A stretch of DNA of 43,201 nucleotides from Parcubacteria group bacterium CG1_02_39_15 (lineage in GTDB: Bacteria > Patescibacteriota > Minisyncoccia > Minisyncoccales > Paceibacteraceae). The stretch is from NCBI GenBank assembly GCA_001872265.1, contig MNWE01000046.1, positions 1-43,201 of the forward strand, given 5' to 3'. Both the position numbers and the translations under genes were made by a program. The notes under the pieces were generated by a model that did not search any database, was not told the DNA's origin, and saw nothing but the letters and a program-made list of their open reading frames with translations. This document shows, piece after piece, positions 1,797 through 29,517 of this stretch (position 1 is the stretch's first letter; the number at the start of each line of letters is the position of its first letter).

Positions 1797-1893
1797 AAAT
1801 TCCAAATTCCAAATTACAAATTCCAAACAAATTACGAATTCCAATTTTCAAAATTCAAAACCTATAATTTGGAATTTGGTGCTTGGGATTTGG
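1797..1893. repeat. CCAAATT-family palindromic intergenic element, copy 1 (short form)
   Basis: The left arm holds AAATTCC-type heptads and the right arm holds TTTGGAATTTGGTGCTTGG. The arms are mutually complementary. Confidence 0.85.
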
Positions 1894-2082
1894 TCATTTC
1901 GTCTTCGCAAGGCGTTTGATGCATTTGGTGCAAGCCAAAACCCTTTTACCCGAAGGTAATCGGGTCCACTGAAGATTGGGGTATTTTCTTTTTTTGCCGG
2001 TGGGATTATATTTTCCGCGAAGCTTGACTAACTTCCCGACCATCCCAGATTTTTTTCCGCAGATTGCACATTCTTTTGCCAT
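1894..2082 (-). CDS. rpmB: 50S ribosomal protein L28
   Basis: 62-aa basic protein, MAKECAICGKK...PNLQ, matching the L28 pattern. Confidence 0.8.
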   Translation of the reverse strand: MAKECAICGKKSGMVGKLVKLRGKYNPTGKKRKYPNLQWTRLPSGKRVLACTKCIKRLAKTK

Positions 2083-2157
2083 AATAGTATTATTTTACCA
2101 GAAGCATAACTTTTTACAAGTACCAAAGTGTTATATAATAGAACATATTGAAAATTT

Positions 2158-2766
2158 ATGGAATTCAAATTCTTTTTATATATTATTGTAGTAACTTCAG
2201 CCATCTTCCACGAATATTTCCATGGCTGGGCCGCTTTTCAGCTGGGAGACCCGACTGCTAAATATGCCGGCCGCTTAACCTTAAATCCTTTAAAACACAT
2301 TGATCCTATAGGCACAGTACTAATGCCGCTTTTTCTGTTGTTTTTCTTTGGCGGTTTTATCGGCTGGGCCAAGCCCGTGCCTTACAACCCCTACAATCTT
2401 CGAGATCAAAAACGCGGCGTTTCCAAAATAGCTATAGCTGGACCCGGAGCCAATTTTTTAATTGCTTTGATTTTTGGAATATTGTTGCGATTCGCTCCTT
2501 TGGGAGGATTTTTAATTATTGCTTTAACCTGGATAGTCTATGTTAATATTTTCCTGGGGTTATTTAATCTTATTCCCATTCCTCCCTTAGACGGCTCAAA
2601 ATTATTAATGGATTTTTTCCCTCAATCAAGAATCCTTCGAGTATTAGAGCAATCGCCCTTAAGTATTTTTTTAGCTATTGCCGTAGCCATAATGTTTTTG
2701 CCCTTTCTTTCTTCCCTGATTTATTATTCAATAGTAGGAAGTTCCTTTTTAGGCTTGACTTTTTAA
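2158..2766 (+). CDS. Site-2 protease family (peptidase M50) membrane metalloprotease
   Basis: HEYFH zinc motif, multiple TM segments and the NLIPIPPLDG motif. Confidence 0.8.
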   Translation: MEFKFFLYIIVVTSAIFHEYFHGWAAFQLGDPTAKYAGRLTLNPLKHIDPIGTVLMPLFLLFFFGGFIGWAKPVPYNPYNLRDQKRGVSKIAIAGPGANFLIALIFGILLRFAPLGGFLIIALTWIVYVNIFLGLFNLIPIPPLDGSKLLMDFFPQSRILRVLEQSPLSIFLAIAVAIMFLPFLSSLIYYSIVGSSFLGLTF

Positions 2767-2790
2767 AATTTTTTGCTAAGCTAAAAAATT

Positions 2791-3198
2791 ATGCCGACCA
2801 TCAGACAATTAATTAAAAAAGGGAGAAAGAAAAGAAAAAAGCTGCATAAAACGCCAGCTTTGCGTTTGGGATTTAATCCTTTGAAAAACAGGCCGATGAG
2901 ATTTTTCTCGCCGTTTAAAAAAGGAGTTTGTCTGAAAGTTTTTACCATAACTCCTAAAAAACCAAATTCGGCCTTAAGAAAAGTGGCCAGGATTAGATTG
3001 AGCAACGGCATGGAGGTAACGGCTTACATCCCCGGAGAGGGCCATAATTTACAAGAGCACTCAATAGTATTGATTCGGGGCGGCAGAGTTAAAGATCTGC
3101 CGGGCGTAAGATACCACATTGTTAGGGGGATTTTAGATACTGGTGGCGTTGAGGGGCGCAAGCAGGAAAGGTCAAAATACGGAGCCAAAAAAGAGTAA
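2791..3198 (+). CDS. rpsL: 30S ribosomal protein S12
   Basis: [19 protein letters not shown] and VRYHIVRG motifs. It sits at the head of the str cluster. Confidence 0.97.
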
Positions 3199-3319
3199 AT
3201 CCCAAATTACAAATCACAAATTCCAAACAAATTCCAAATTCCAATTTCCAAATTCTAAATAACCTATAGTTTGTGATTTGGTATTTGGTGCTTGGAATTT
3301 CTTTTGCGGAGCAAAAAGC
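3199..3319. repeat. CCAAATT-family palindromic element, copy 2 (short form), plus a terminal UUUUGC-GGA-GCAAAA hairpin
   Basis: Complementary arms. The last 40 nt are nearly identical to 17093-17132. Confidence 0.85.
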
Positions 3320-3321
3320 AT

Positions 3322-3786
3322 ATGGCTAGAAAAAAAGAAAAAAGAGAAATAATGCCTGATCTTGTCTATGGCAACGTTCTGGTCTCCAGGTTTATTAATC
3401 AGGTGATGAAAAAAGGCAAAAAGACTATCGCCAGCAAAATTGTTTATGGTGCTTTTAATATTATTAAAGAAAAAGAAAAGAAAGAACCTTTGGAAGTTTT
3501 CGAAGAAGCAATTAAAAACGTCAAACCATTAGTGGAGGTTCGGCCAAAGAGGGTTGGCGGAGCTACTTATCAAGTTCCCAGACCCGTACCTCCGGAAAGA
3601 TCAATTGCCTTGGCTATAAGATGGGTTTTAGGAGCGGTCCGCAGCAAAAAAGGAAAACCGACAAAAGAAAAATTAGCCGAAGAAATAATTTTAGCTTCCA
3701 AAAACGAAGGGTCAGCGATAAAGAAAAAAGAGAATACTCATCGAATGGCAGAAGCCAACAGAGCTTTCGCCCACTTCGCCTGGTAA
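3322..3786 (+). CDS. rpsG: 30S ribosomal protein S7
   Basis: The S7 sequence starts [18 protein letters not shown]. The ORF-track start at 3292 lies inside the repeat and looks spurious. Confidence 0.95.
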
Positions 3787-3789
3787 AAT

Positions 3790-3900
3790 TGAAACTGGGT
3801 TAGGGTTAAGAAACCGGTATGGAAGTTGGAAGTCGGTGAAAATTACTAACTTCCTAACCCCTAAACCAAACTGGCTTCTCAACCTTTTAACTAACTTCTT
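3790..3900. repeat. About 105-nt GTTAGG/CCTAAC element, copy A
   Basis: Its reverse complement aligns with 10394-10507, for example GAAGCCAGTTTGGTTTAGGGGTTAGGAAG and TTCCATACCGG..CTTAACC.TAACC. Confidence 0.8.
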
Positions 3901-6063
3901 ATGCCGCGTATTTATCCCATAGACAGAGTTCGTGATATCGGCATCATCGCTCACATTGATGCCGGTAAAACAACCGTTACTGAACGGGTGCTTTTTTATA
4001 CTGGAATTTCCCATAAAATTGGTGAAGTGCACGATGGCCAAGCCATCATGGATTGGATGGTTCAAGAAAGAGAAAGGGGCATCACCATTACGGCAGCCGC
4101 CACTACTTGTTATTGGTCACCGAGCTTCGGCGAAGCGGAAGCGAAGGTAAAGATGAGAATGGAGTCCTCATCGCTGCCGAGCAAGCTAAAAAGAGAAAAA
4201 GAAACAGAGCACCGAATAAACATTATTGATACTCCAGGCCACATTGATTTTACGGTGGAAGTGCAAAGGTCTCTGCGCGTTTTGGACGGAGCCGTGGTTG
4301 TTTTTGACGGGGTGGCCGGAGTAGAACCCCAATCTGAAACGGTTTGGCACCAGGCAGATAAATTTCATGTGCCCCGGATTTGTTTCATAAATAAATTAGA
4401 CAGAATGGGAGCTAACTTCGAAAAAAGTTTAGACTCAATTTGGAATAAATTATCGCCCCAGGCCGTAGCTCTTCAACTACCCATAGGAAGAGAAGAGCGT
4501 TTTGAAGGGACAATTGATTTATTAAAAATGAAAGCCTATAAATCTGAAGGAGATTTTGGCCAAATTATTGGAGAAGAAGAGGTGCCGGAAAATTTATTGG
4601 AAGAAGCTAAAACCTGGAGAAAAAAATTAGTAGAAAAAATTGCTGCTGAAGATGAAGCCTTGTTGGAAAAATATTTAGGCGGTGAAGATCCTTCTATTGA
4701 TGAATTGAGGGCAGTTTTAAGAAAAGCTACTATCAACTACAAACTAATCCCGGTTCTTTGCGGTTCAGCCCTGAAGAACAAAGGGATCCAGGCCTTATTG
4801 GACGCAGTTTGTTATTATCTGCCCAGCCCCGTTGATCTGCCGCCGGTTAAAGGCATTGATCCTAAAACGGGGGATAGCATTGAAAGAAAAGCTGATGATT
4901 CAGAGCCGTTTTGCGCTCTGGCTTTCAAAGTTGCCTCAGACCCTTATGTCGGCACTTTAACTTATTTCAGAATATATTCCGGGGCTTTGAAAAAAGGTTC
5001 TTATTTGCTTAACACCACCACTCAAGAGAAAGAAAGAATCGGTAGAATTTTAAGAATGCATGCTCAAGAGCGCGAAGAGGTAGAAGAAATTTTTACCGGC
5101 GATATTGCTGCTACCGTGGGTCTTAAAAACACCTCTACCGGCCATACCTTATGCGATGAAAATCACCCAATCGTTCTGGAAAAAATTACTTTCCCGGAGC
5201 CGGTCATTTCAATCAGAATTGAGCCTAAAACCAAAGCTGACCAAGAAAAGATGAGTTTGGCCTTAAAAAGATTAGCCGAAGAAGACCCAACTTTTAGGGT
5301 TAAAGGAGACCTGGAAACCGGAGAAACTATAATTTCTGGGATGGGAGAATTGCATTTAGATATTATTACTGATAGAATGCGAAGAGAATTTAAAGTTGAA
5401 GCTTCAGTTGGCAGGCCTCAAGTTGCTTATAAAGAAACAATTTTGGAAGAAGCCGAGGCTGAAGGAAAATATATCAGGCAGTCTGGAGGTAGAGGGCAAT
5501 ATGGTCATGTGTTCTTGAGAGTGGAGCCCAAAAGTCGTGGCGAAGGATTTGAATTTATAGATGAAATTAAAGGAGGAATTATTCCAAGAGAATTTATTCC
5601 GGCAGTAGAAAAGGGGATAAAGGAGGCCATAGAAAAAGGAGTGGTGGCGGGCTATCCCATGGTTGATTTAAGCTGCGCTTTGTATGACGGTTCTTATCAC
5701 GAAGTTGATTCTTCAGAAATAGCTTTTAAGATTGCTGGCTCCATGGCTTTTCAAGCGGCCTGTAAAAAAGCTAGGCCGGTTTTGTTAGAACCGGTTATGA
5801 AATTAGAAATTGTTGTGCCAGAAAGCTTTTTTGGCGACGTCATTGGAGATTTGTCTGCCAGACGAGGAAAAATTGAAGAAACTAAGGACAGGCTTCAATT
5901 AAAAGTCATTGACGCCAAGGTTCCTTTGGCAGAAATGTTTGGCTATGCTACTACCTTAAGATCCTTGACTGAAGGAAGAGGAACCTTTACAATGGAGTTT
6001 GACCATTACGCTGAGGTACCCCAAAATATTGCCCAAGAGATTACAGAAGGAAAGAGAAGGTAA
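3901..6063 (+). CDS. fusA: Elongation factor G
   Basis: [14 protein letters not shown] and NKLD G-motifs, with full-length EF-G domain order. Confidence 0.97.
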
Positions 6064-6069
6064 TTCACA

Positions 6070-6097
6070 TTGACAATTCCTCAGAAATAAGTAATAT
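6070..6097 (+). promoter_or_regulatory. Sigma70-like promoter candidate upstream of tuf (TTGACA-N16-TAATAT)
   Basis: TTGACA at 6070-6075 and TAATAT at 6092-6097. Confidence 0.4.
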
Positions 6098-6112
6098 AGT
6101 AACATAACCTTA

Positions 6113-6246
6113 AAAATTCCAAATCACAAATTCCAAATTCCAAACAAATTCCAAATTCCAATTTCCGAAATTCTAAACAGTTTTGGTCATTGGAATTTCG
6201 GTCATTGGATATTGTTTGTAATTTGGTGCTTGGAGCTTGGAATTTA
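6113..6246. repeat. CCAAATT-family palindromic element, copy 3 (long form)
   Basis: The left arm has CCAAAT words. The right arm is TTGGTCATTGGAATTTCGGTCATTGGATATTGTTTGTAATTTGGTGCTTGG. Confidence 0.9.
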
Positions 6247-6253
6247 AAATAAT

Positions 6254-7453: not shown

Positions 7454-7475
7454 AATTAATGTTGTAAACTAAAGA

Positions 7476-7817
7476 ATGGCGAGGAAGAAAGCTACAGCAG
7501 TCGAAGAGGAAATTAAGCCGAAACTTAGAATCAAGCTGCGGGCTTATGATCATAAAGTGATTGACAATAGTGCTCGACAAATTATTGAGACAGCTTTGCG
7601 CTATGGTGCAGAAATTTCAGGTCCCGTTCCTTTACCAACCGAAATTCAAAAATATACCGTGAACAGGTCTTCGTTTATTCATAAAGATGCCCGGGAACAG
7701 TTTGAGATGAGAGTCCATAAAAGATTGATAGACATTTTGAGTCCGAACCAAAAGGTAATAGATGCCCTGATAAACCTTACTTTGCCGGCTGGAGTTGATA
7801 TTGAGATTAAAATGTGA
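7476..7817 (+). CDS. rpsJ: 30S ribosomal protein S10
   Basis: [14 protein letters not shown]...SGPVPLPT. Confidence 0.96.
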
Positions 7818-7839
7818 ATAAGATTATATTTTGATAGCG

Positions 7840-7918
7840 CGAGCAAAGATCGGGCTGTGCCCGATTTTCTATTAATCCGTGTTCATCTGTATTCACATCT
7901 GTGTGAATCTGTGTAAAA
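7840..7918. repeat. CACAGAT/ATCTGTG-family element, copy a, preceded by the hairpin ATCGGGC-TGT-GCCCGAT
   Basis: The words ATCCGTGTT, CATCTGTATT, CACATCTGTGTG and AATCTGTGTA sit directly upstream of rplC. Confidence 0.7.
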
Positions 7919-7919
7919 A

Positions 7920-8546: not shown

Positions 8547-8563
8547 TTTCTAATATCTAATTT

Positions 8564-9208: not shown

Positions 9209-9209
9209 C

Positions 9210-9590: not shown

Positions 9591-9607
9591 TCTCTAAACA
9601 AATTCCA

Positions 9608-10393
9608 ATGGCCAAAATCCAAAAATCAAAAAGCATATTAACAAAGAAAGAGCCTGAGAGAAGGTGGCTTTTGGCTTTGAAGAGCAAAGCTGGTAGAACA
9701 GCTTCGGGCAGAATTACCGTACGGCATCGTGGCGGAGGAGTGAAACGACTCTATCGAGTTGCTGATTTTGGACAAGACAAATTAGGAGTAGTAGGTAAAG
9801 TTATTGCCTTGGAATACGATCCTTACCGAACAGCCTATCTTGTTTTGGTTGAATACCAAGACGGAGATCGAAGATATATTTTAGCCCCCTATCAGCTAAA
9901 TGTTGGTGATGAAATAATCTGTAATGAAGCTGCCGAAATCAAAATTGGCAACAGGATGAAACTAAAAAACATTCCAGTTGGTACTCAGGTATATAATATT
10001 GAATTGGAGCCTGGTAAGGGAGGGAAAATGGCAAGGTCAGCCGGTTCTACGGCTAAAGTTTTAGCCCGCGAAGCAGGGCTGACACATTTGGCAATGCCTT
10101 CGGGCGAAATTCGAAAAGTACCTCAAGAGTGCTTTGCCTCAATTGGTCAGGTGTCTCGGCCAGAGCATAGATTTATTACTATAGGTAAGGCTGGCAGGGT
10201 TAGGTTGAAGGGAAGAAGGCCTCAGGTTCGTGGGACAGCAATGAATCCTTGCGACCATCCTCATGGCGGCGGAGAAGGAAAGACCCCCATCGGTTTGAAA
10301 TATCCAAAAACTCCTTGGGGAAAGCCAGCTTTAGGAGTAAAAACGAGAAAGAAGAAGTGGACAGATAAATATATTGTTAAAAGAAGAAATTAG
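9608..10393 (+). CDS. rplB: 50S ribosomal protein L2
   Basis: GRITVRHRGGG and MNPCDHPHGGGEGK. Confidence 0.97.
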   Translation: MAKIQKSKSILTKKEPERRWLLALKSKAGRTASGRITVRHRGGGVKRLYRVADFGQDKLGVVGKVIALEYDPYRTAYLVLVEYQDGDRRYILAPYQLNVGDEIICNEAAEIKIGNRMKLKNIPVGTQVYNIELEPGKGGKMARSAGSTAKVLAREAGLTHLAMPSGEIRKVPQECFASIGQVSRPEHRFITIGKAGRVRLKGRRPQVRGTAMNPCDHPHGGGEGKTPIGLKYPKTPWGKPALGVKTRKKKWTDKYIVKRRN

Positions 10394-10507
10394 TCAAAGG
10401 GTTAGGAAGCCAGTTTGGTTTAGAGGTTAGGAAATTAACTTTTACTAACTTCTTAGCCTGATTTCCATACCGGCATCTTAACCTTAACCTACCTTCTGCT
10501 AAAAATA
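10394..10507. repeat. About 105-nt GTTAGG/CCTAAC element, copy B (inverted relative to copy A)
   Basis: See 3790-3900. By eye the two copies are roughly 80 percent identical in reverse complement. Confidence 0.8.
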
Positions 10508-10831: not shown

Positions 10832-10856
10832 ATCTCGTAAATCGTAAACCAATTTC

Positions 10857-11372: not shown

Positions 11373-11381
11373 TTAGAAATC

Positions 11382-12732: not shown

Positions 12733-12739
12733 TATCAAT

Positions 12740-14211: not shown

Positions 14212-14316
14212 TACGCACAGATTCACACCGATTTGAACATAGATTTACACAGATCCGTGTTAATCTGTGTAAGCGTGCGAAGCACGCGAAATTATCTGTG
14301 TTGATCCGTGTATTAC
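14212..14316. repeat. CACAGAT/ATCTGTG-family element, copy b, with core AATCTGTGTAAGCGTGCGAAGCACGCGAAA
   Basis: The left arm has CACAGAT words and the right arm has ATCTGTG/ATCCGTG words. The core is almost identical to 26630-26660. Confidence 0.85.
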
Positions 14317-14512: not shown

Positions 14513-14899
14513 ATGGATCCCGTAACTGATATACTCAATAGAATAAGAAACTCTCAGGCTGTTAGCAAAGAAACAGTTGAGATTTCTTTTTCTAATTTAA
14601 GATATGAGATAGCGAAAATTTTAGAGAAACAGGGATTTATAGAAAAAGCGGAAAAGAAAGGAAGAAAAGCAAAAAAAATTATTGAAATAACTTTGAAATA
14701 TCTTAATAAGCAGCCGGCCATTTCCGGGTTAAAAAGAATATCTAAGCCAGGCAAAAGAATTTACAAAAGCTATCAAAAAATAGGCAAAGTAAGAGGAGGC
14801 TACGGCATAGCTATCATTTCCACATCGAAAGGGTTGATAACAGACAAAGAGGCCCGGCGCCAGAAACTGGGCGGCGAAGTCATATGCGAAATATGGTAA
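14513..14899 (+). CDS. rpsH: 30S ribosomal protein S8
   Basis: DPVTDILNRIRN...GGEVICEIW. Confidence 0.96.
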   Translation: MDPVTDILNRIRNSQAVSKETVEISFSNLRYEIAKILEKQGFIEKAEKKGRKAKKIIEITLKYLNKQPAISGLKRISKPGKRIYKSYQKIGKVRGGYGIAIISTSKGLITDKEARRQKLGGEVICEIW

Positions 14900-15030
14900 A
14901 ATTCCAAATCACAAATTCCAAATCACAAACAAATTCCAAATTCCAAATTCAAAATTCAAAACCTGTTTTGGTCATTGGAATTTTGGTTATTGGTGCTTGT
15001 TTGGAGTTTGGTGCTTGGGATTTGTAATTT
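14900..15030. repeat. CCAAATT-family palindromic element, copy 4 (long form)
   Basis: It fills the whole rpsH-rplF spacer and has complementary arms. Confidence 0.9.
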
Positions 15031-15031
15031 T

Positions 15032-15971: not shown

Positions 15972-16505
15972 ATGAGAAGAGAATTTCGAAGAACAAGGGC
16001 GGAGAAGCCGAAGGATGAGTTTGAGTCCAAGCTTTTAGATTTGGCTAGAGTAGCCCACACAAGAGCCGGCGGTAAAAAAATGAGATTTCGGGCCGCCATA
16101 GTGACTGGCAATAAACTGGGCAAAGTTGGCTTTGGAGTGGCAACCGGCATGGATGTACAAGCTGCTGTAGAAAAAGCTACGCGTCTATCCAAGAAAAACC
16201 TGATTGAAGTGCCAATTATCGAGGACACCATTCCTCACGAGGTTATTTCGAAATATGGCGCAGCTGAAATTTTGCTTAAACCTCAAAGAAAAGGAAGAGG
16301 ATTGGTAGCGGGGGGCACGGTTAGGGTCATCTGTACTTTAGCTGGAGTAAAAAATATCTCCTCTAAGGTTTTGGGCAGAACCGGGAACAAACTAAATAAT
16401 GCCAGAGCAACCATTATAGCCTTACAAAAGCTAAAAATTCCAAGCACCAAGCACCAAATTCCAAACAAATCTCAAGCACCAAATTCAAAATTCGAAACAG
16501 TTTAG
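15972..16505 (+). CDS. rpsE: 30S ribosomal protein S5 (the C-terminal ~24 aa are encoded by the repeat element)
   Basis: GGKKMRFRAAIVTGN...GRGLVAGG. The tail is IPSTKHQIPNKSQAPNSKFETV. Confidence 0.95.
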   Translation: MRREFRRTRAEKPKDEFESKLLDLARVAHTRAGGKKMRFRAAIVTGNKLGKVGFGVATGMDVQAAVEKATRLSKKNLIEVPIIEDTIPHEVISKYGAAEILLKPQRKGRGLVAGGTVRVICTLAGVKNISSKVLGRTGNKLNNARATIIALQKLKIPSTKHQIPNKSQAPNSKFETV

Positions 16506-16566
16506 AATTTTGGTTATTGGAATTTGGATATTGTTTGTAATTTGTAATTTGGGATTTGGAATTTTA
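16434..16566. repeat. CCAAATT-family palindromic element, copy 5 (long form), overlapping the rpsE 3' end
   Basis: The right arm TTGGTTATTGGAATTTGGATATTGTTTGTAATTTG is almost identical to copy 7. Confidence 0.9.
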
Positions 16567-16571: not shown

Positions 16572-17015
16572 ATGCAATTACACGAAATACGTCCAATTCA
16601 TAAACCTAAAAAACAAAAGCGAATTGGTCGGGGCGGAAAGCGGGGAACTTATTCTGGCAGGGGGATAAAAGGGCAGAAATCTCGAGCTGGCAGAAGATTA
16701 CAACCTGTAATTCGCGAATTAATTAAAAGATACCCAAAATTAAGGGGGTACCGATTTAAATCCAGCAGCCAAAGCCAAAAATCCAAAACGGCCACTTTAA
16801 ACTTAGAGGTTTTAGAGAAAAAATTTCAGCCAGAAGAGAAAATTAGTCCTGAGATATTGCTAGAGAAGAAAATAGTTCGTAGAATAAAAGGGAGAATGCC
16901 CAGGGTAAAAATTTTAGGCAAAGGAAAACTCACCAAAGCTTTGACCATCGAGAATTGCTCGGTTTCTAGAAGTGCCAAAGAGAAGATAGAAAAGGCTGGT
17001 GGTACTGTGAAATAA
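16572..17015 (+). CDS. rplO: 50S ribosomal protein L15
   Basis: KRIGRGGKRGTYSGRGIKGQKSRAG. Confidence 0.96.
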   Translation: MQLHEIRPIHKPKKQKRIGRGGKRGTYSGRGIKGQKSRAGRRLQPVIRELIKRYPKLRGYRFKSSSQSQKSKTATLNLEVLEKKFQPEEKISPEILLEKKIVRRIKGRMPRVKILGKGKLTKALTIENCSVSRSAKEKIEKAGGTVK

Positions 17016-17132
17016 ATCCCAAATAACAAATCACAAATTCCAAACAAATCACAAATTTCAATTATCAATAACCAAAACATATAGTTTGTAATTTGGAATT
17101 TGGTGCTTGGAATTTCTTTTGCGGAGCAAAAG
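17016..17132. repeat. CCAAATT-family palindromic element, copy 6 (short form), plus the CUUUUGC-GGA-GCAAAAG hairpin ending 1 nt before the secY ATG
   Basis: Complementary arms. The terminal 40 nt match copy 2. Confidence 0.9.
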
Positions 17133-17133
17133 C

Positions 17134-19815: not shown

Positions 19816-19821
19816 TTTAAT

Positions 19822-20562: not shown

Positions 20563-21652
20563 AGGGTCCCAAAAAGTTTACCCTGTTAAATCCCGCAAAG
20601 CAGGAATTTCGCTAAAGGCGAAATTATTTAACAGGGTAAAATTTCCTTCGGAGCTTCGTTTTGATTTAATATCCAAAGACTGGGTGGTTATTGCTACCGG
20701 CAGGGCCAGAAGGCCGGAAACCTTTAAAGCTGAACAAAGAAAAATAGATAAAGTTCCCAAGTCCGAGTGCCCTTTCTGTAAAATTGCTACCCAGGAGAAG
20801 CCCACCCTCATTTTTTCTAATGGCAAAAAAATGCCTCAAAGCAAAGGAATTCCCAAAAATTGGACCACTATTGTTATTCCCAATAAATACCCCGCTTTTC
20901 TTCCTTTTCCGAAATTAGATAAACATATAGAAGGAGGTTTATATGAAACAGTGAACGCAGTGGGCTTTCACGAGGTGGTGGTTACCAGAAGCCACGAAAA
21001 GCAATTGGCCCAGTTTTCCTTAAAAGAAGTAAAAGAAGTATTTGATGTTTATCAAGAAAGATACCGAGATTTAATGAAGAAAAATTTCGTGAATCATATT
21101 TCTATTTTTCACAATCATGGTTTTGAATCTGGAGCATCAATTGCTCACCCTCATTCTCAGATTATTACCACTCCTTTAGTTGATGTTGATGTTCAAAAAG
21201 GCCTTTTAAATTCTGAAAAATATTTTAAGACAAATAGAAAATGTATTTATTGCCAGATGAACGAATGGGAGAGGAAAGTGAAGAAAAGGGTAATTTTTGA
21301 AAATAAACAATTTTTAGCCGTTTGTCCTTTTGCCTCAAAATCCGCCTTTCAGGTTATTGTTTCGCCAAAATCACACCTTTCTTATTTTGAAAAGGCGAAT
21401 GATGAGGAAAAACGGCAGTTGTCAGAAGCTTTCAGAGCGGCGTTAAAAAAAGTCTACAAAGGATTAGACGACCCTCCCTACAACTTTTATTTGCACACCG
21501 CTCCCTGCGACGGTAAAAAATACGGTTATTACCACTGGCATTGGACCATTTTGCCCAAAACCGCCACCTGGGCAGGTTTTGAACTGGGAGCAAGAATGGA
21601 AATTTCCACCATTGCGCCAGAAAAAGCCGCCGCATATTTAAGAAAACAGTAA
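20555..21652 (+). CDS. galT: Galactose-1-phosphate uridylyltransferase-like HIT-superfamily protein
   Basis: N-terminal CPFC, the HPHSQI histidine triad variant, and two half-domains. Confidence 0.75.
   Translation: MTKGSQKVYPVKSRKAGISLKAKLFNRVKFPSELRFDLISKDWVVIATGRARRPETFKAEQRKIDKVPKSECPFCKIATQEKPTLIFSNGKKMPQSKGIPKNWTTIVIPNKYPAFLPFPKLDKHIEGGLYETVNAVGFHEVVVTRSHEKQLAQFSLKEVKEVFDVYQERYRDLMKKNFVNHISIFHNHGFESGASIAHPHSQIITTPLVDVDVQKGLLNSEKYFKTNRKCIYCQMNEWERKVKKRVIFENKQFLAVCPFASKSAFQVIVSPKSHLSYFEKANDEEKRQLSEAFRAALKKVYKGLDDPPYNFYLHTAPCDGKKYGYYHWHWTILPKTATWAGFELGARMEISTIAPEKAAAYLRKQ
20578..20639. repeat. 62-nt nested palindrome inside the 5' end of the galT-like CDS
   Basis: The outer stem is TTACCCTGTTAAAT / ATTTAACAGGGTAA. 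The inner stem is AATTTCGC-TAAAG-GCGAAATT. Confidence 0.8.
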
Positions 21653-21668
21653 GGTTGCTCGGCAACTA

Positions 21669-21781: not shown

Positions 21782-21798
21782 TTGCCTCGCTAAAACTT

Positions 21799-22548: not shown

Positions 22549-22593
22549 GGTCGTTGATTTTACTAACAAAACTTGCTAAGATAATTAAGATAT

Positions 22594-23109: not shown

Positions 23110-23111
23110 AA

Positions 23112-24782
23112 ATGACCTTTGCTAAATTGCGTAGAGATTTTTTAGCTTTTTTTGAGAAGAGGGGACACAAGATTGTCCCTTCTTCTTCGCTTATGCCCAC
23201 TGACCCCTCGGTTCTTTTTACTTCAGCTGGCATGCAGCAGTTCAAACCCTATTATTTGGGCGAAAAATCGCCTTACGGGCTAAATGTTGCGACTTGCCAG
23301 AAATGTTTCAGAACCTCTGATATTGAAGAAGTTGGTGACGAAAGCCATTTAACTTTTTTGGAAATGCTGGGCAATTTTTCTTTCGGAGGATATTTTAAAA
23401 AAGAAGCAATTAAACTCGCTTTTGAGCTCGTAAATTCCACATTCCAAATTCCAAAATCCAAAATGACGATTACTGTTTTTGGCGGCGACAAAGAAGTGCC
23501 AGAAGATAAAGAATCAGCAGAAATTTGGAAAAAATTAGGAATACCGGAAGAAAAAATAAAAAAATGCGGTAGAGAAGATAATTTTTGGGGTCCCACCGGC
23601 GAGGAAGGGCCCTGCGGACCTACCACCGAAATTCATATAAATGGCATAGAAGTTTGGAACTTAGTCTTTAATGAATTTTATCAAAACAAGAATAAGAAAC
23701 TGACGCCTTTAGAACAGAAGGGGGTTGACACTGGCATGGGGCTGGAGAGGTTGGCGATGGTAGCTCAAAACAAACCCAGTGTATTTGAAACCGATTTATT
23801 TGAACCGTTTATCCGAGAACTTCCCGAGACTAATATTAAAGCCAGAAGAATTATCGCAGATCACATTAGAGGTTCAGTTTTCTTAATCTCCGAAGGAATT
23901 TTACCTTCCAACGTAGAACAAGGATATATTTTAAGAAGAATTTTAAGAAGAACAATTCGTTATGGGAAATTGCTTAACTTAGTTAAGCAATTTCTAATTC
24001 CCCTGGCACAAAGAGTGATTGAGATTTACAAAGACATTTATCCCGAATTAAAATCCAAAGAAGCCGACATTTTAACGGTTATTCAGAACGAAGAAGAAAA
24101 GTTTGAAAAAACTTTGGAAATAGGAATTAAGCAATTCGGAAAGGTTGCTCTTCGGGGAGCGATTTCGGGCAAAGATGCTTTTCACCTTTTCGACACTTAT
24201 GGATTTCCGTTAGAACTGACCCAGGAATTAGCCAAAGAAAAAGGGATAAAGGTTGACACGGAGGGATTTAAAGCAGCGTTTGAAAAACACCGGGAAATCT
24301 CCAGGGCCGGAGTTGAAAAGAAATTTGGCGGAGTGGGGAAAGGCGCAACTATAGAAGCCGCGAAATTGCATACTGCCACTCACTTATTGCACGCTGCTCT
24401 CAGAGAAGTTTTAGGCGAGCACGTTCAACAAATGGGTTCAGATATTACTTCCCAGAGGTTGCGTTTTGATTTTTCTCATCCTGTCAAAATGACCCAAGAA
24501 CAAGTTAAAAAAGTTGAAGACTTGGTTAATCAAAAAATAAGAGAAGATTTAGAAGTGAAAAAGGAAGAAACGGATTATCAAACAGCTGTAAAATCTGGAG
24601 CGTTGGCGTTCTTCAAAGACAAGTATCCCGGGAAAGTGACCGTCTATTCTATAAGGGGATTTTCTAAGGAAATTTGCGCTGGACCTCATGCAAAAAAAAC
24701 CGGAGAGCTCAGCCATTTTAGAATTATAAAAGAAGAATCGTCCGGCTCGGGCGTTAGGAGAATTAGAGCAATATTAAAATAA
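23112..24782 (+). CDS. alaS: Alanine--tRNA ligase, short form lacking the C-Ala domain
   Basis: FTSAGMQQFKP, DTGMGLERL, and editing motifs HTATHLLH and CAGPH. Only 556 aa. Confidence 0.93.
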   Translation: MTFAKLRRDFLAFFEKRGHKIVPSSSLMPTDPSVLFTSAGMQQFKPYYLGEKSPYGLNVATCQKCFRTSDIEEVGDESHLTFLEMLGNFSFGGYFKKEAIKLAFELVNSTFQIPKSKMTITVFGGDKEVPEDKESAEIWKKLGIPEEKIKKCGREDNFWGPTGEEGPCGPTTEIHINGIEVWNLVFNEFYQNKNKKLTPLEQKGVDTGMGLERLAMVAQNKPSVFETDLFEPFIRELPETNIKARRIIADHIRGSVFLISEGILPSNVEQGYILRRILRRTIRYGKLLNLVKQFLIPLAQRVIEIYKDIYPELKSKEADILTVIQNEEEKFEKTLEIGIKQFGKVALRGAISGKDAFHLFDTYGFPLELTQELAKEKGIKVDTEGFKAAFEKHREISRAGVEKKFGGVGKGATIEAAKLHTATHLLHAALREVLGEHVQQMGSDITSQRLRFDFSHPVKMTQEQVKKVEDLVNQKIREDLEVKKEETDYQTAVKSGALAFFKDKYPGKVTVYSIRGFSKEICAGPHAKKTGELSHFRIIKEESSGSGVRRIRAILK

Positions 24783-24811
24783 TTTGATATAATAAATGAA
24801 GTATTACCACT

Positions 24812-26092
24812 ATGGAGAAAAGAGTAATTGATATTTCTCCCCCGGGGAAGAAAAAAGAAAAAGAGATTAGAGAGGAATTGCCTCCAGTAAGAGAGCCAAG
24901 TTTTAGCTTTAAGAGACCTGAAATAAAAATTACGGCTCCGAAACTTCCTTTTAATAAGGTTTTCTTAGTTATTGCCGCAGTTTTAATAATAATTGGAGTG
25001 ATTGTTAGTTCCAGTCTGTCGCGGGCCGAAATTGAAATAAAGCCAGAAATAGAAATTTTGACTTTCAAAACCAAAGCAACAGTAGACAAATCCGCAGAAG
25101 CAATTAATTTTTTAGATAAGGTAGTCCCGGGGAAAATTTTTCAGACTGAAAAAACGGTTTCTGGGGATTTTTCTTCTTCCGGCGAGATGTCAGAGGCTAA
25201 GAAAGCTGAAGGTACAATTAAGATCTATAATAATTATAATTCACCCCAAGTTTTAGTAGCCCAGACGAGATTCCAGGCGCCTTTAGAAAAATTTCAGCCT
25301 TCTCTCGAGAAAGGAGAAAACCCATGGTTCAGAACCGTAGAAAGGGTAGTTATCCCAACTAAGGGGCAAGTTGATGTTAAAGTAATAGCTGATAGCCCGG
25401 GCGAAAAATATAATATTGAAGCTTCAACTTTTTCTGTTCCTGGTTTGGCTGGAACTCCTCAATACACATTTGTTTATGGCAAGTCTTCTGAGTCAATAAA
25501 GGGGGGCATGTTAGCAAGAACCTCCCAAGTTACCCAGGAAGATTTAGATAAGGCAAAAGAGTCGCTTACGGAAAAAGCCAAAAAAGAATGCAACGAAGAT
25601 TTAAAAAATAAAATTTCAGCTGACTTCGCCTTCTTGGCAGAAGCCACAACAACGGAAATCATTGAGGCTAGCTCTTTGGCAAAACCCGGAGTGGGTTTGG
25701 AAAAATTTAATTATCAAGTAAAAGCTCGTTCACTTACTTTAGCTTTTAAGGTGGAAGACCTTAAGAAATTCGCTAACGAATTTATTTTATCTCAAGTCCC
25801 CGACAATAAAGTAATTTATCCGGCGAGTTTGAAAGTAAATTATTTTTTGACCAACTCCACCTTAGAGGCAGGGAAAATCATTCTTTCTTTAGATTTGGAA
25901 GCTAAAATTTATTCGGACATCGACGAGACCGCATTAAAAAGAGCTTTGGAAAAGAAATCGGCCGCCGAAGCTAAATTGTTTTTGGAGGGGCAGCCAGAAA
26001 TTAGCGAGGCTAAAATCAAGCTTTGGCCATTTTGGGTAAAGGAGATTCCCGCTGAAGAAGGGAAGGTTAAAATAACCTTAAGGATTGACTAA
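24812..26092 (+). CDS. Hypothetical single-pass membrane-anchored protein
   Basis: A charged N-terminus is followed by a TM helix (VFLVIAAVLIIIGVIV) and a large extracytoplasmic part. I recognise no family. Confidence 0.6.
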   Translation: MEKRVIDISPPGKKKEKEIREELPPVREPSFSFKRPEIKITAPKLPFNKVFLVIAAVLIIIGVIVSSSLSRAEIEIKPEIEILTFKTKATVDKSAEAINFLDKVVPGKIFQTEKTVSGDFSSSGEMSEAKKAEGTIKIYNNYNSPQVLVAQTRFQAPLEKFQPSLEKGENPWFRTVERVVIPTKGQVDVKVIADSPGEKYNIEASTFSVPGLAGTPQYTFVYGKSSESIKGGMLARTSQVTQEDLDKAKESLTEKAKKECNEDLKNKISADFAFLAEATTTEIIEASSLAKPGVGLEKFNYQVKARSLTLAFKVEDLKKFANEFILSQVPDNKVIYPASLKVNYFLTNSTLEAGKIILSLDLEAKIYSDIDETALKRALEKKSAAEAKLFLEGQPEISEAKIKLWPFWVKEIPAEEGKVKITLRID

Positions 26093-26131
26093 AGAAGAAA
26101 TGCTTGGTATATTATCTAATTGTATTTAAAG

Positions 26132-26350
26132 ATGAATAAAAAAAATTTTTCTCGTCAATTCGGGACAATTTTAGAAGCCTTGCCTAGCGCCAATTTCAAA
26201 GTAAGATTAGATGACGGAAGAGAGGCGCTTTGCCATCTGGCGGGGAAACTGAGGATATATCATATTAAGATCTTGCCCGGCGACAGAGTTCAGGTTGAAT
26301 TAAGCCCCTACGATGAGAAAAGAGGAAGGATCGTTTATAGAGAAAAATAG
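26132..26350 (+). CDS. infA: Translation initiation factor IF-1
   Basis: 72 aa, [19 protein letters not shown]...[13 protein letters not shown] (S1-like fold). Confidence 0.95.
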
Positions 26351-26425
26351 TCAATGAAGCTAAAGCTTCATTTCCATCTGCGCTTTCACATATTTTATTA
26401 ATATAAAATGAATAAAGCTTGATAA

Positions 26426-26539
26426 ATGAAAGTTAGACCATCAGTAAAAAAAATTTGTAAGAAATGCAAAATCGTCCGCCGAAAAGGACGAGTTTATGTC
26501 ATTTGTAAAAATCCCAGACATAAACAACGCCAAGGCTGA
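26426..26539 (+). CDS. rpmJ: 50S ribosomal protein L36
   Basis: Hand-translated 37 aa, [37 protein letters not shown]. It is below the ORF-track cutoff. Confidence 0.93.
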
Positions 26540-26698
26540 CAATTCGCTTCGCGAACACACGGATTTACACAGATGAGCGTCGCCTTCGGCGACTGCACAG
26601 ATATACACAGATTATTTTTATCCGTGTCAATCTGTGTAAGCGTGCAGAGCACGCGAAAATATCCGTGTAGATCTGTGTATTTTGCGAAGCAAAATTAC
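26540..26698. repeat. CACAGAT/ATCTGTG-family element, copy c, with GUCGCC-UUCG-GGCGAC, GCGUGC-AGA-GCACGC and UUUUGC-GAA-GCAAAA hairpins
   Basis: It shares the core AATCTGTGTAAGCGTGC.GAGCACGCGAAA with 14212-14316. Confidence 0.85.
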
Positions 26699-27088
26699 AT
26701 GCCGAGAATTGCCGGGATAAACATCCCAGAAGACAAACAAATAAAAACTGCCTTGACCTATATTTACGGAATAGGTCTTTCTTTGGCGAGAAAGATTTTA
26801 AATGAAGCTGGCGTAGAGCCGCAGCTTCGTGCCTCTCAATTAACTCCAGAGCAGGTAAATAAACTTAAAGAGATTATCGAGAAGGAATATAAAATTGAAG
26901 GAGAGTTGAGGAGAGAGGTGATGATGAACATCAAAAGATTAAAAGACATAGGTTCTTGGCGGGGTTCGCGGCATATTAAAGGATTACCAGTTCGGGGTCA
27001 AAGAACCCGTACCAACACTCGGACCGTCAGGGGTAATGTTAGAAAGACCGTGGGAAGCGGTAGAAAGCCAGCCGCTACTCCAACCTAA
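26699..27088 (+). CDS. rpsM: 30S ribosomal protein S13
   Basis: MPRIAGINIPEDK...GLPVRGQRTRTN. The start at 26573 lies in the repeat and looks spurious. Confidence 0.96.
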   Translation: MPRIAGINIPEDKQIKTALTYIYGIGLSLARKILNEAGVEPQLRASQLTPEQVNKLKEIIEKEYKIEGELRREVMMNIKRLKDIGSWRGSRHIKGLPVRGQRTRTNTRTVRGNVRKTVGSGRKPAATPT

Positions 27089-27094
27089 TAAATT

Positions 27095-27547
27095 ATGGGG
27101 AAGAAACGCATAATTCAACAAACAGAAGAAGAGCTCTTGAAAGAAAGAGAGAAAGTGGAAGCTAGGGTAAAGAAAGAAATAAGAGCCGAAGCTCCTCACA
27201 AAATAAGAGAGGGGAGAATTTATATTTCTTCAAGCTATAACAATACCATCATTACTTTAACTGATGCCCAGGGAAACGCGATATTTTGGGCTTCAGCCGG
27301 CAACCTTGGTTTTAAGGGAACTAAAAAAGCCACTCCTTTTGCCGCTTCAAAAGTGGCCGAGGCTATGGCTGAGACTTGCAAAAAATTGGGCATTGAGAAA
27401 ATAGCTGTGTTTATAAAAGGAATTGGCTCGGGAAGGGAATCGGCTTTGAGGTCTTTAGTCGCCCGGGGATTAGAGGTTGTTTCTATTAAAGACATCACTC
27501 CTATTCCTCATAACGGTTGCCGACCTCCCAAGGTGCGCAGGGTTTAG
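27095..27547 (+). CDS. rpsK: 30S ribosomal protein S11 (N-terminal extension)
   Basis: YISSSYNNTIITLTD...GFKGTKKATPFAA...PHNGCRPPK. Confidence 0.96.
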   Translation: MGKKRIIQQTEEELLKEREKVEARVKKEIRAEAPHKIREGRIYISSSYNNTIITLTDAQGNAIFWASAGNLGFKGTKKATPFAASKVAEAMAETCKKLGIEKIAVFIKGIGSGRESALRSLVARGLEVVSIKDITPIPHNGCRPPKVRRV

Positions 27548-27572
27548 TAAAAACTATGGAAGATAAAAAGTC

Positions 27573-27596
27573 AAAGAGGACATCGTCCTCTTTTCC
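27573..27596 (+). terminator. Hairpin plus short T-tract, a weak intrinsic-terminator candidate after rpsK
   Basis: AAAGAGGAC-ATC-GTCCTCTTT followed by TCC. The T-tract lies mostly inside the stem. Confidence 0.3.
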
Positions 27597-27628
27597 ACCT
27601 TCACTTTTTTATATATAATTTATATTCA

Positions 27629-28261
27629 ATGAATAAAAGTTCGGTATGTAAAATTTGTCGGAGGCTTGGCACAAAACTATTTCTTAAAGGCGAGAGATGT
27701 TTTTCGCCAAAGTGTCCTATGATTCGGCGCCCCTATCCGCCAGGAAAAAAGGGAAAACGAAGACCACGCCCTCTGTCGGAATATGGCAAAGAGTTAAGAG
27801 AAAAACAAAAATTAAAAAATTGGTATAATTTGCAAGAGAAACAATTCGCGAATTATGTAAAGAAGATTTTAGCTAAAAAGAAAAAAGCAGAAGATCCGAC
27901 CGCCATCTTGATCAAGAGCTTGGAAAACCGTTTAGACAATGTAATCTTTAGGTTGGGATTTGCCGTTTCTCGCGAGCAAGCCAAGCAATTCGTGTCCCAC
28001 GGCCATTTTTTAGTTAACGGCAAATCTATTGATACGCCGGCCTATTCGGTTAGAAAGGGAGACGTGATTGCGGTAAAACCCCACAAGGCGAAGAAAACTG
28101 TTTTTCAAAATATAAAAACTATATTAAAAAAGCAAAAACCTCCCAGCTGGCTTGAGCTGAGCATTGAAAAATTAGAAGGCAAAGTAATTGGAGAACCCAG
28201 CTTGGAGGAAGCCGCACCGCCTGTCGAGGTGTCGGCCATCTTTGAGTATTATTCAAGATAA
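27629..28261 (+). CDS. rpsD: 30S ribosomal protein S4
   Basis: CKICRRLGTKLFLKGERC... with S4 RNA-binding domain SHGHFLVNGK. Confidence 0.96.
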   Translation: MNKSSVCKICRRLGTKLFLKGERCFSPKCPMIRRPYPPGKKGKRRPRPLSEYGKELREKQKLKNWYNLQEKQFANYVKKILAKKKKAEDPTAILIKSLENRLDNVIFRLGFAVSREQAKQFVSHGHFLVNGKSIDTPAYSVRKGDVIAVKPHKAKKTVFQNIKTILKKQKPPSWLELSIEKLEGKVIGEPSLEEAAPPVEVSAIFEYYSR

Positions 28262-28265
28262 AATC

Positions 28266-29075
28266 ATGATTTCACTACCCAATCAGCCAAAGGTCATTAA
28301 AAAAGAGGGGAATAAGGCCATTTTTGAAATAGAGGCTCTTTACCCGGGTTACGGAGTGACCGTTGGGAATTCCCTTAGGCGGGTTTTACTTTCTTCGTTG
28401 CCCGGAGCCGCTGCTACCCAGGTAAAAATTAAGGGCGTTCCTCATGAATTTTCAACCATCCCTGGGGTTTTAGAAGACGCCGTCTCGCTTATGCTTAATT
28501 TAAAACAAATGAGATTCCGTCTTTTTACTGAAGAGCCCCAAATCGCCACTTTAAAAGTTAAAGGCGAAAAAGAGATCAAAGGTTCTGATTTTAATTTTCC
28601 TAGCCAAGTGGAGCTGGTGAATAAAAATTGTCACATTGCCACTTTAACTGCCAAGTCAGCGGAATTGGAGATGGAAATTAAAATTGAAAAAGGAATAGGC
28701 TATTCGCCGAGTGAAGCTAGGAGAAAAGAAAAAGAAAAAACCGAAATAGGGGTAATACCTTTGGATGCCATTTTCACTCCAGTTAAGAGAGTAAGCACGA
28801 AGGTGGATAGCATGCGAGTAGGGGAGAGGACGGATTTTGACAAATTGTTTCTAGAGGTTGAAACCGACGGCGCCATAACTCCGGAATCGGCCTTTTGCCA
28901 AGCTTCAGAGATTTTAGTAAAGCACTTCTCGCTATTAGCTGAAGCCCTTCAAAAAGCCGCTGAAGAAAAACCGGCGCTGATGACGAAAGAAAAAAAGGAA
29001 AAAGTTATTAAGAAAAAAAAAGCAGTTAGAGCTAAAAAACATGCCAAAACGAAAAAGGGGAAGAAAACTAAGTAG
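28266..29075 (+). CDS. rpoA: DNA-directed RNA polymerase alpha subunit, N-terminal domain plus a lysine-rich tail, with no alpha-CTD
   Basis: GYGVTVGNSLRRVLLSSLPG and LDAIFTPVKRV. The protein ends in KKKKAVRAKKHAKTKKGKKTK. ATG 28266 is preferred over 28188. Confidence 0.9.
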   Translation: MISLPNQPKVIKKEGNKAIFEIEALYPGYGVTVGNSLRRVLLSSLPGAAATQVKIKGVPHEFSTIPGVLEDAVSLMLNLKQMRFRLFTEEPQIATLKVKGEKEIKGSDFNFPSQVELVNKNCHIATLTAKSAELEMEIKIEKGIGYSPSEARRKEKEKTEIGVIPLDAIFTPVKRVSTKVDSMRVGERTDFDKLFLEVETDGAITPESAFCQASEILVKHFSLLAEALQKAAEEKPALMTKEKKEKVIKKKKAVRAKKHAKTKKGKKTK

Positions 29076-29391
29076 GAAAAAAGATCAGAGGAAAGCTTTA
29101 TTGCGGTCCTTAGCTGGCAGTATTTTCTTAAAAGAAAAAATCAAAACTACCGAAGCCAAGGCCAAAGAAGTGGCTGTTTTTGCAGAGAAGCAAATTACTC
29201 GAGCAAAAAAAGGAGATTTGCATTCAAGAAGATTATTGGCTAAGCTTTTTCCGCCAAAATTAGTTAAAAAAATTGTTGATGAGATTGCCCCTAGATATAA
29301 AGAAAGAAAAGGCGGTTACACCAGGGTTATTAAGCTAGGGCCGAGAAGGTCAGATGGGGCAAAAATAGCCATCATAGAATTAATAAAATAA
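29041..29391 (+). CDS. rplQ: 50S ribosomal protein L17
   Basis: GRKLSRKKDQRKALLRSL...GGYTRVIKLGPRRSDGA. It overlaps rpoA by 35 nt. Confidence 0.95.
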   Translation: MPKRKRGRKLSRKKDQRKALLRSLAGSIFLKEKIKTTEAKAKEVAVFAEKQITRAKKGDLHSRRLLAKLFPPKLVKKIVDEIAPRYKERKGGYTRVIKLGPRRSDGAKIAIIELIK

Positions 29392-29517
29392 CAAATTACA
29401 AATTACAAATCCCAAACAAATTCTAAATTCTAAATTCCAAATTCCAAACCGTTTTGAATTTTGGTTATTGGAATTTGGATATTGTTTGGAATTTGGTGCT
29501 TGGTGCTCGGAATTTTT
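29392..29517. repeat. CCAAATT-family palindromic element, copy 7 (long form)
   Basis: It fills the rplQ-rplM spacer. The right arm matches copy 5. Confidence 0.9.

Follow-up and report, generated by a model that had tools for sequence, protein, structure and literature searches.

A Heptad-Built Palindromic Repeat Family, Apparently Undescribed, in a Candidatus Nealsonbacteria Genome and in Other Bacterial Phyla

Contig MNWE01000046.1 of Parcubacteria group bacterium CG1_02_39_15, a window of 43,201 nucleotides (nt) analyzed here over its whole length, belongs to a genome of Candidatus Nealsonbacteria (Parcubacteria; candidate phyla radiation, CPR). It carries eight copies (c1 to c7, and a half copy, c8, within gatA) and two fragments of an imperfect palindrome that is built of degenerate 7-nt words, with full copies of 97–134 nt. 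The repeat family is real and apparently undescribed; its kind, the small palindromic selfish repeat, is already known. We think it rather probable that the elements are non-autonomous selfish DNA repeats, similar to repetitive extragenic palindromic (REP) sequences and Rickettsia palindromic elements (RPE), that are passively co-transcribed. The unusual features of the family are its construction from heptad words, its range across phyla, and the insertion of half copies in essential genes.

Architecture and Insertion History of the Window Copies

The analyzed region is compact, with nearly all genes on the plus strand, and comprises rpsL-rpsG-fusA-tuf, the S10/spc/alpha ribosomal-protein clusters, secY-adk-map, housekeeping genes, and gatCA. 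Copies were located by repeat finding (direct and inverted repeat families), alignment, and searches with a profile hidden Markov model (HMM) of the family (Table 1). A first-pass annotation had reported seven elements in the spacers of ribosomal operons, and all seven are present where it placed them. They are not the full set, however, as the window holds three additional pieces: the gatA half copy, a fragment at the rplW/rplB junction, and a tract in an alaS-like gene. A degenerate 23-base pattern derived from the left arm, AAATNNCAAATNNCAAATNNCAAACAAAT, matches the window eight times with up to three mismatches, compared to an expectation of none from 100 dinucleotide-preserving shuffles, and thus more often than by chance.

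Siting in the spacers of ribosomal operons holds for most copies, but c1 belongs to an opposite-strand unit (probable rpmB/tRNA-Pro) and is antisense to local transcription. Likewise, c5 is not simply a spacer element, as its left arm lies inside the S5 reading frame and its orientation is opposite to that of the other copies; read on the plus strand, the first arm of c5 codes for the last ~23 residues of S5 (KIPSTKHQIPNKSQAPNSKFETV), and the S5 stop codon is in the element loop (16503–16505). The extents first given for c2 and c6 were too long, the last 17–18 nt being a separate small hairpin (CTTTTGC-GGA-GCAAAAG). The ribosomal-protein cluster holds six of the eight copies, and 18 kb of flanks hold none, numbers too few for a claim of enrichment.

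Alignment of the window copies reveals a common order that comprises approximately four heptads of the form (C)AAATNN, a core CAAAC, four to five further heptads, an apex AAAC-N-GTTT, and an imperfect complement with the 3' end GTTTG TAATTTG GTGCTTG GNNNTTG GAATTT. The left-arm heptads, core, and imperfectly complementary right arm that had been read from the letters alone are thus borne out, with an invariant C-AAAT, a variable NN, and a CAAACAAAT core. The division into long and short forms is also genuine: c1, c2, and c6 share the center (C/A)(C/A)TATA(A/G)TTTG and one internal deletion (loop/apex plus inner right arm). The occurrence of this commonly deleted short form three times in the window suggests the copying of variants.

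The arms are ~75% complementary. The proposal that each copy can fold into a long hairpin holds for the long forms, both as RNA (-34 to -46 kcal/mol, z -4.1 to -7.7) and as DNA (-20 to -28 kcal/mol, z -2.5 to -6.4), whereas the short forms fold weakly (-21 to -25.5 kcal/mol, z -2.9 to -4.1 as RNA; z -1.4 to -2.5 as DNA). Half copies form no hairpin. No promoter-like site was found inside the copies, and no terminator-like site was found in any copy between positions 1 and 20000, so that an intrinsic terminator (GC-rich stem plus T run) was rejected.

At gathering thresholds, Rfam 15 identified a group I intron and tRNAs in the window and no family at the copies. Permissive E-value scans of c3 and of one further copy (locus L079) returned only miRNA-type hairpin noise (at most 27 bits versus thresholds of 36–330). 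The literature on heptamer repeats, including short tandemly repeated repetitive (STRR) sequences, and on CPR transposable elements of the miniature inverted-repeat type (MITEs) provided analogues and no description of the element, in agreement with the earlier statement that no description of the family was known.

The insertion history of the copies was evaluated in four sister species (L15 73–78% identical) with the same gene order. In these species, the S8-L6 spacer is 6–29 nt, S5 and L15 overlap or are 1 nt apart, and L15 and secY are separated by -4 to 4 nt; searches of 17–20 kb of each with nhmmer and the element HMM yielded no match. Outside the insert, filled junctions can be aligned with empty ones base by base, as in TGGTAA/ATTTTT/ATGAGTCGTATAGG (empty) and TGGTAA/A...element...TTTT/ATGAGTCGTATAGG (filled). 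Because the S8-L6, S5-L15, and L15-secY junctions of the four species are without the element, these alignments show the window copies as lineage-specific insertions into spacers that were originally 0–29 nt. This comparison of orthologous spacers had been proposed in the first-pass annotation.

The Nealsonbacteria population has been assembled repeatedly, and its L15 protein was found in 94 blocks of the sequence collection. Fixation holds for c1–c6 and c8: each of the 16 strain contigs that spans a copy retains it (the set comprised 18 contigs, none of which covers c7), and the strain copies are identical or nearly so, with one single-nucleotide polymorphism in c3. Repetitive AT-rich sequence can mislead assemblers, and an assembly or chimera artifact had been named among the findings that would undo the family. 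This explanation is exceedingly improbable, as c1–c6 and c8 recur in 18 contigs of independent ENA and JGI assemblies and sample sets, copies are embedded in frame in conserved genes, and both a finished isolate genome and megabase contigs contain copies as well.

Distribution Across Phyla and in Reading Frames

The exact 23-base pattern was run over GTDB species genomes and returned at least 120 matching stretches; statements on other genomes below refer to the matches listed. Their hosts belong to more than 10 phyla and include Desulfobacterota (Desulfobacterales, Syntrophobacterales), Aminicenantes, Acidobacteria, Omnitrophota, Planctomycetota, Verrucomicrobiota, Bacteroidota (Bacteroidia), Ignavibacteriales, Gammaproteobacteria, Elusimicrobiota, Nitrospinota, Stahlbacteria, and many CPR lineages, with host loci of 29–66% GC. 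Among them are megabase contigs, two closed chromosomes of metagenome-assembled genomes (MAGs), and the cultured isolate Desulfosarcina alkanivorans PL12. A right arm was detected within 600 nt in about two thirds of the matches.

Thirty full copies from across the phyla form an alignment of 166 columns with a mean identity of 68%. Conservation extends to parts that the pattern left free, namely the first heptad, inner arm (AATGACC AAAATTC), apex, and entire right arm. On this alignment, the same heptad architecture is shown in many phyla. Identity among copies is 74% within a genome or lineage versus 66% between, indicating that lineage subfamilies exist. Larger palindromes enclose several of the copies. 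In Desulfobacterales MAGs (L037, L063, L083, L086, L109), the heptad element forms the center of a ~300-nt composite palindromic repeat that has conserved flanks yet occupies non-orthologous sites; the apparently conserved flanks in this order therefore do not reflect orthology. Phage was rejected as a vector, given a single match among 2.9 million viral contigs.

Copies are found between co-directional, convergent, and divergent genes alike, and their orientation relative to co-directional neighbors is 27:21. Distances to adjacent starts and stops are spread over 4–78 nt, which speaks against any tie to start or stop codons outside the Nealsonbacteria genome and suggests that the tight stop-to-start fit in the window reflects the tiny spacers of the Nealsonbacteria genome. 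Across these loci, the family is shown, as judged from its placement, to spread independently of gene context and orientation.

Copies that consist of the left arm only were identified in frame in SecA, LeuRS, ArgRS, MurE, TopA, and DNA polymerase III alpha (DnaE; two copies). Coding half copies sit between or within Pfam domains. In all eight of them (seven elsewhere plus GatA) the sense strand is the CA-rich strand, and all three frames are used; KSQIPNPKSQTNSKFQ is an example of the encoded peptides. The opposite strand would code for hydrophobic peptides of the GIWNLEF type, which would explain both the orientation filter and the loss of the right arm in reading frames. These eight cases show that only the CA-rich, stop-poor arm survives in reading frames, where it becomes a hydrophilic, low-complexity linker. 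Linker length shifts in steps of about 7–10 residues.

The window provides two further element-derived protein parts, namely the C-terminal tail of S5 and the start codon of L2. The latter is supplied, together with the N-terminus MAKIQKSKS, by the AATGGCC heptad of the rplW/rplB fragment (9595–9640); the sister species have MKQYK. A second variable loop of GatA (41810–41850, residues ~338–346) reads KPQTNTD here and KIRNSKFEIRN or KPQMDTDKKQINTD in relatives, and looks like another repeat-derived tract.

Words, Hairpins, and Mode of Spread

The 30 cross-phylum copies were evaluated for pairing in a full-register stem. The CAAAT/ATTTG blocks are paired in 27–30 of the 30 copies, and the NN positions are unpaired in 13–26. 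No arm-to-arm covariation was detected (75.0% of cells paired versus 75.4% in shuffles), and the RNAalifold covariation term of -0.11 leaves the long stem unsupported. One heptad pair has a conserved A.C plus U.G, symmetric between strands, and the left arm avoids G at free positions. The maintenance of CAAAT pairing, combined with drift at NN and a lack of covariation, indicates that the words are conserved and not the pairs.

These results bear on whether the hairpins are selected RNA modules of ribosomal-protein transcripts, whether as RNase III sites, 3' exonuclease barriers, or stop-start coupling devices. Such a role would suit the strong RNA folding of the long forms, the placement of c2, c4, c6, and c7 (which run from a stop codon and end 0–5 nt short of either the following ATG or a small hairpin before it), the lack of Shine-Dalgarno sequences in the Nealsonbacteria genome, the fixation in the population of every copy covered by strain contigs, and the cleavage by RNase III of co-transcribed Correia elements (PMC10969869). 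However, a structured cis-regulatory RNA with compensatory changes was rejected, as the full stem fails the covariation test. The balance of G.U and A.C mismatches in the window copies likewise lends RNA modules no support; it indicates no strand preference and is by itself uninformative on an RNA role. In addition, two of the seven window copies (c1 and c5) are inverted relative to transcription, the short forms fold weakly and half copies are hairpin-free, four sister species manage without copies, and copies in other genomes keep neither to starts and stops nor to co-directional genes. RNA modules are therefore distinctly unlikely in our estimation, and the sequences offer no positive support for a dedicated RNase III or stability role.

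Conserved words could alternatively mark the heptad arrays as host sites for a protein that reads CAAAT at 7-nt spacing in a regulatory or nucleoid role. Candidate readers are an omega-type ribbon-helix-helix protein (on DNA) or S1, cold-shock, or CsrA-type proteins (on RNA). WATCACW heptads are the binding sites of the pSM19035 omega repressor, and the more frequent words of the element include AATCACA. A protein site would explain why CAAAT/ATTTG is invariant when NN is variable and non-complementary between arms, and why the sequence is retained in genomes of up to 66% GC. Short heptad-like direct repeats also precede many other starts in the window, and TAACTGA heptamers upstream of starts, including those of ribosomal-protein operons, have been proposed as S1, Csp, or CsrA sites (PMC4679880). 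Nevertheless, the 120 listed loci tie no candidate binding protein to the elements, copies occur inside coding sequences and in random contexts and orientations, and they are missing from close relatives. Moreover, conservation of words is equally expected if a transposase or recombinase reads them. Host protein sites are accordingly unlikely.

The REP/MITE-like selfish repeat proposed in the first-pass annotation is favored by the insertions, the occurrence in any context and orientation, the in-frame copies, and the many phyla. It fails as a MITE in the strict sense, since no target-site duplication and, at the 120 listed loci, no partner transposase was found. The element is short, non-coding, and multi-copy with inverted-repeat arms, as MITEs are; evidence of recent mobility by presence or absence is confined to absence at the level of sister species.

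Several observations weigh against a selfish repeat. The flanks of 65 full copies reveal no target-site duplication and no defined termini, and the filled/empty comparison leaves at most an ambiguous AATT. No transposase or recurrent neighboring protein family was found within 8 kb at the 120 listed loci, where all-against-all clustering of 764 open reading frames (ORFs) recovered generic families only (ABC ATPases, response regulators, kinases, and aminoacyl-tRNA synthetases). A REP-associated tyrosine transposase (RAYT; Y1/HUH) gene was identified neither in the window nor in the listed loci, and no convincing arm pairs enclosing a cargo gene were found. The 16 spanning strain contigs show no presence/absence polymorphism of the heptad family, whereas other small hairpin families are polymorphic in those same contigs. 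Ascertainment is a further concern, as the search pattern fixed three left-arm heptads and the core. A 12-bp apical helix (CAATGACCAAAA/TTTTGGTCATTG) is the sole part of the stem to show double changes (covariation score 0.111 versus 0.090 in shuffles, 0 of 500 of which score as high), a signal that could derive from kinship of the sequences. Finally, both the invariant CAAAT/ATTTG amid NN drift and the maintenance of an AT-rich element in genomes of 60–66% GC could reflect sequence constraint and host function.

The GatA tract also weighs on this side. Relatives at 75–84% identity carry a KQIPNSKFQI-type linker too, with lengths that differ by about 7–10 residues, and the tract adds a net 6 residues compared to solved GatA structures. 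This suggests an old, dynamic tract, and one that, on its sequence, fits in situ repeat dynamics as well as insertion. Such dynamics could be extended to the whole family if tracts arise locally by heptanucleotide slippage and palindrome-making template switching, without transposition or common descent. Heptanucleotides are reported as the commonest long simple repeats in many bacteria, with polymerase slippage proposed as their cause (Mrazek 2007, via PMC4679880). The varying GatA linker fits such a process, as do the outer stem of c5, which is flipped relative to c7 when the inner part is not, and the other heptad-like repeats that are common in the Nealsonbacteria genome. However, slippage fails to explain a non-repetitive architecture common to more than 10 phyla (core CAAAC, apex AATGACC...GGTCATT, and GGTGCTTGG in the right arm) or one internal deletion common to three copies at unrelated sites. 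As an origin of the family slippage is already disfavored, and we consider it very unlikely. Membership in the class of heptanucleotide tandem repeats was rejected as well, since the heptads differ at NN and the arrays are broken by core and apex and paired with an inverted array.

If the elements are selfish repeats, they would spread at the level of DNA, probably via a single-stranded hairpin intermediate and a factor acting in trans, which would read the invariant CAAAT words and not base pairing. Horizontal transfer may have seeded the separate phyla, with amplification within each lineage thereafter. The window copies would simply be co-transcribed and in part exapted into protein. They may be tolerated because the hairpin rejoins the stop and next start codon and because the genome is independent of Shine-Dalgarno sequences.

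In behavior, the closest known analogues appear to be RPE, followed by REPs. RPE are ~100–150 bp and have no coding capacity of their own. They are palindromic repeats found between genes and in frame in unrelated housekeeping genes, to which they add a tolerated peptide, and no transposase is known for them (PMC10969869). The heptad element resembles them in size, palindromic form, and combined intergenic and in-frame insertion (GatA, S5, and L2 here, and the six proteins named above elsewhere). The likeness is one of behavior only, as the hosts of the heptad element are unrelated phyla. RPE families are confined to Rickettsia and are inserted whole, whereas the heptad element occurs in more than 10 phyla, is built of 7-nt words, and is represented in coding sequence by its CA-rich half only.

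REP sequences, including bacterial interspersed mosaic elements (BIME) and REPINs, lack target duplications and are mobilized in trans by RAYT transposases. Like the heptad element, REPs are short, imperfect extragenic palindromes, often between genes of one operon, and are co-transcribed. In contrast, REPs are 20–40 nt, GC-rich, specific to a species or genus, associated with a REP-flanked RAYT gene, and not known to occur inside reading frames, whereas the heptad element is AT-rich and 100–135 nt, is without such a gene at the 120 listed loci, and does enter reading frames. Correia elements (CREE/NEMIS), ERIC, and other MITEs share with it a length of ~100–200 bp, inverted-repeat arms, insertion beside or between genes, and co-transcription, and RNase III cleaves the hairpins of co-transcribed Correia elements (PMC10969869). 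MITEs differ in having defined terminal inverted repeats and target-site duplications (TA for Correia), none of which is detectable for the heptad element, in carrying promoters or integration host factor sites where the heptad copies have no promoter-like or terminator-like site, and in being restricted to a genus.

Heptamer arrays of the STRR/TAACTGA type are a conceptual neighbor without fixed architecture. The cyanobacterial STRR2 word, TTGGTCA, occurs in the apex of the heptad element, GTTTTGGTCATTG. TAACTGA repeats of Beggiatoaceae, Cyanobacteria, and Bacteroidetes are intergenic, often before starts that lack a Shine-Dalgarno sequence, and are also found in reading frames; their patchy distribution among phyla suggests horizontal transfer (PMC4679880). 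The 7-nt unit, intergenic siting, presence in ribosomal-protein operons and reading frames, and patchy phyla are thus common to both. However, STRR/TAACTGA arrays are tandem direct repeats of one identical heptamer in variable copy number. In the heptad element, heptads degenerate at two positions form inverted arrays around a unique core and apex, within a discrete ~130 nt.

Coordinates, Neighboring Features, and Significance

Table 1. Heptad-element copies, fragments, and adjoining small hairpins in the window (HMM, hidden Markov model of the family).
Feature	Position	Strand	Setting	HMM E-value or other score
c1, short form	1797..1893	+	between stop of probable rpmB (-, 1894-2082) and tRNA-Pro (-, 1703-1776)	E 1.2e-18
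c2, short form	3197..3300	+	rpsL-rpsG spacer; rpsL stop codon overlapped by first heptad	E 2.8e-18
small hairpin CTTTTGC-GGA-GCAAAAAG	3301..3318	+	between c2 and rpsG ATG (3322); identical tail after c6	
c3, long form	6113..6246	+	fusA-tuf spacer, end 7 nt before tuf ATG	E 1.8e-33; -46.2 kcal/mol, z -7.7
partial copy, core and inner left arm	9595..9640	+	rplW/rplB junction	E 6.9e-05
c4, long form	14899..15031	+	whole rpsH-rplF spacer, stop codon to ATG	E 8.5e-33
c5, long form	16433..16566	-	inverted relative to family model	101.0 bits minus versus 81.7 plus
c6, short form	17014..17115	+	rplO-secY spacer	E 1.9e-17
small hairpin CTTTTGC-GGA-GCAAAAG	17116..17132	+	between c6 and secY ATG (17134)	
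short heptad tract	23432..23468	+	in frame in alaS-like gene, codes NSTFQIPKSK	E 0.009, weak
c7, long form	29386..29517	+	rplQ-rplM spacer; rplQ stop TAA within first heptad AAATAAC	E 9.1e-31
c8, half copy, left arm to loop apex	41551..41616	+	in frame in gatA, codes NSKFQNPNYKQIPNSKFQIRN	E 2.8e-10

Adjacent to c1, the 62-residue ORF at 1894-2082 (-) matches the Ribosomal_L28 profile over its full length at 25.7 bits (cut-off 27) and is probably rpmB. A strong sigma-70-like match (TTGACA, 16 nt, TAATAT; 10/12) lies at 6070-6097 (+), between the fusA stop and c3, suggesting that c3 may sit in a tuf 5' leader. Inspection of the 40 nt upstream of each start revealed a Shine-Dalgarno sequence at almost no gene of the window. 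Short direct heptad-like repeats (TAATTTC, CAATTTT, TTCGTAA, GTAAATC) stand before many starts and small hairpins before others, for example TTTTGC-GAA-GCAAAA before rpsM.

Other small repeat families were identified in the same region. A second palindromic spacer family (TTACTAACTTCCTAACC...) occupies the rpsG-fusA (3787-3900) and rplB-rpsS (10394-10507) spacers; neither copy is universal in the population, and strains without them have spacers of 11 and 4 nt, respectively. At 30361-30495, three 45-nt units in tandem (GTGGGCGAAGAGATAAATCTCTTC...) extend over the end of rpsI, and a PD-(D/E)XK/Cas4-like ORF (30667-31356) lies downstream of them. The hairpin core of this unit recurs in rplB as an in-frame insertion of 48 nt that varies among strains (L2 of 279 versus 261 residues; contigs L006/L007, 3250-3300), and a related unit is polymorphic in the fusA-tuf spacer (strain contig L134, ~4660-4700). 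The 45-nt-unit family looks currently mobile. A third hairpin family, of ATCCGTG/ATCTGTG words, is found upstream of rplC, rpsN, and rpsM (7870-7916, 14246-14314, and 26613-26681). Nested hairpins (CCTGTTAAAT...ATTTAACAGGG) are located in the start of a galT-like gene (~20585-20640; contig L006, 14023-14077), strain variants of which differ by 45–53 nt and yield proteins of 365, 376, and 380 residues.

Two further intervening sequences were observed. A tRNA(CAT) gene at 42806-43117 (+) is apparently split in its anticodon loop by a group I intron (42842-43069; Rfam, 89.7 bits); its halves, GCGGGATGGAGAAGTAGTATCTTGCGAGGCCCATAA and CCTCGAGACGTGGGTGCAATTCCCACTCCCGCA, were identified by eye, and the gene was not called by ARAGORN. 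An intact tRNA-Met and then a tRNA-Asp lie downstream. Downstream of the window (contig L142, 18731-20522), gyrB contains an intein (Pfam Intein_splicing).

The heptad element has practical consequences for annotation, as gene callers extend or mis-start ORFs across the stop-poor arm, as seen in the S5 extension and in ORFs with a TTG start at 3292, 14975, and 17107. An experimental handle is offered by the cultured D. alkanivorans PL12, which carries a copy.

Small palindromic repeats of the REP, RPE, and MITE types are normally genus-specific, whereas the ~130-nt heptad architecture is common to many phyla. Such breadth implies that a non-coding element has spread horizontally over a very wide range or that the heptad words have a conserved reader, and neither appears to be documented in the literature searched. 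A bolder interpretation, which we consider rather unlikely, is that CAAATNN arrays are read word by word by one trans factor, itself horizontally mobile or universally conserved. They would then represent a pan-bacterial repeat system of a new type, one that spreads without target duplication via a hairpin intermediate, adds hydrophilic linkers to essential proteins, and may have been recruited to punctuate operons in genomes without Shine-Dalgarno sequences. For the biology of Nealsonbacteria, the copies mean that a streamlined, minimal CPR genome accepts insertions of 100–135 nt at seven junctions of its most highly expressed operons, and that inserted sequence now contributes to proteins, as the tail of S5, the start codon of L2, and the linker of GatA.

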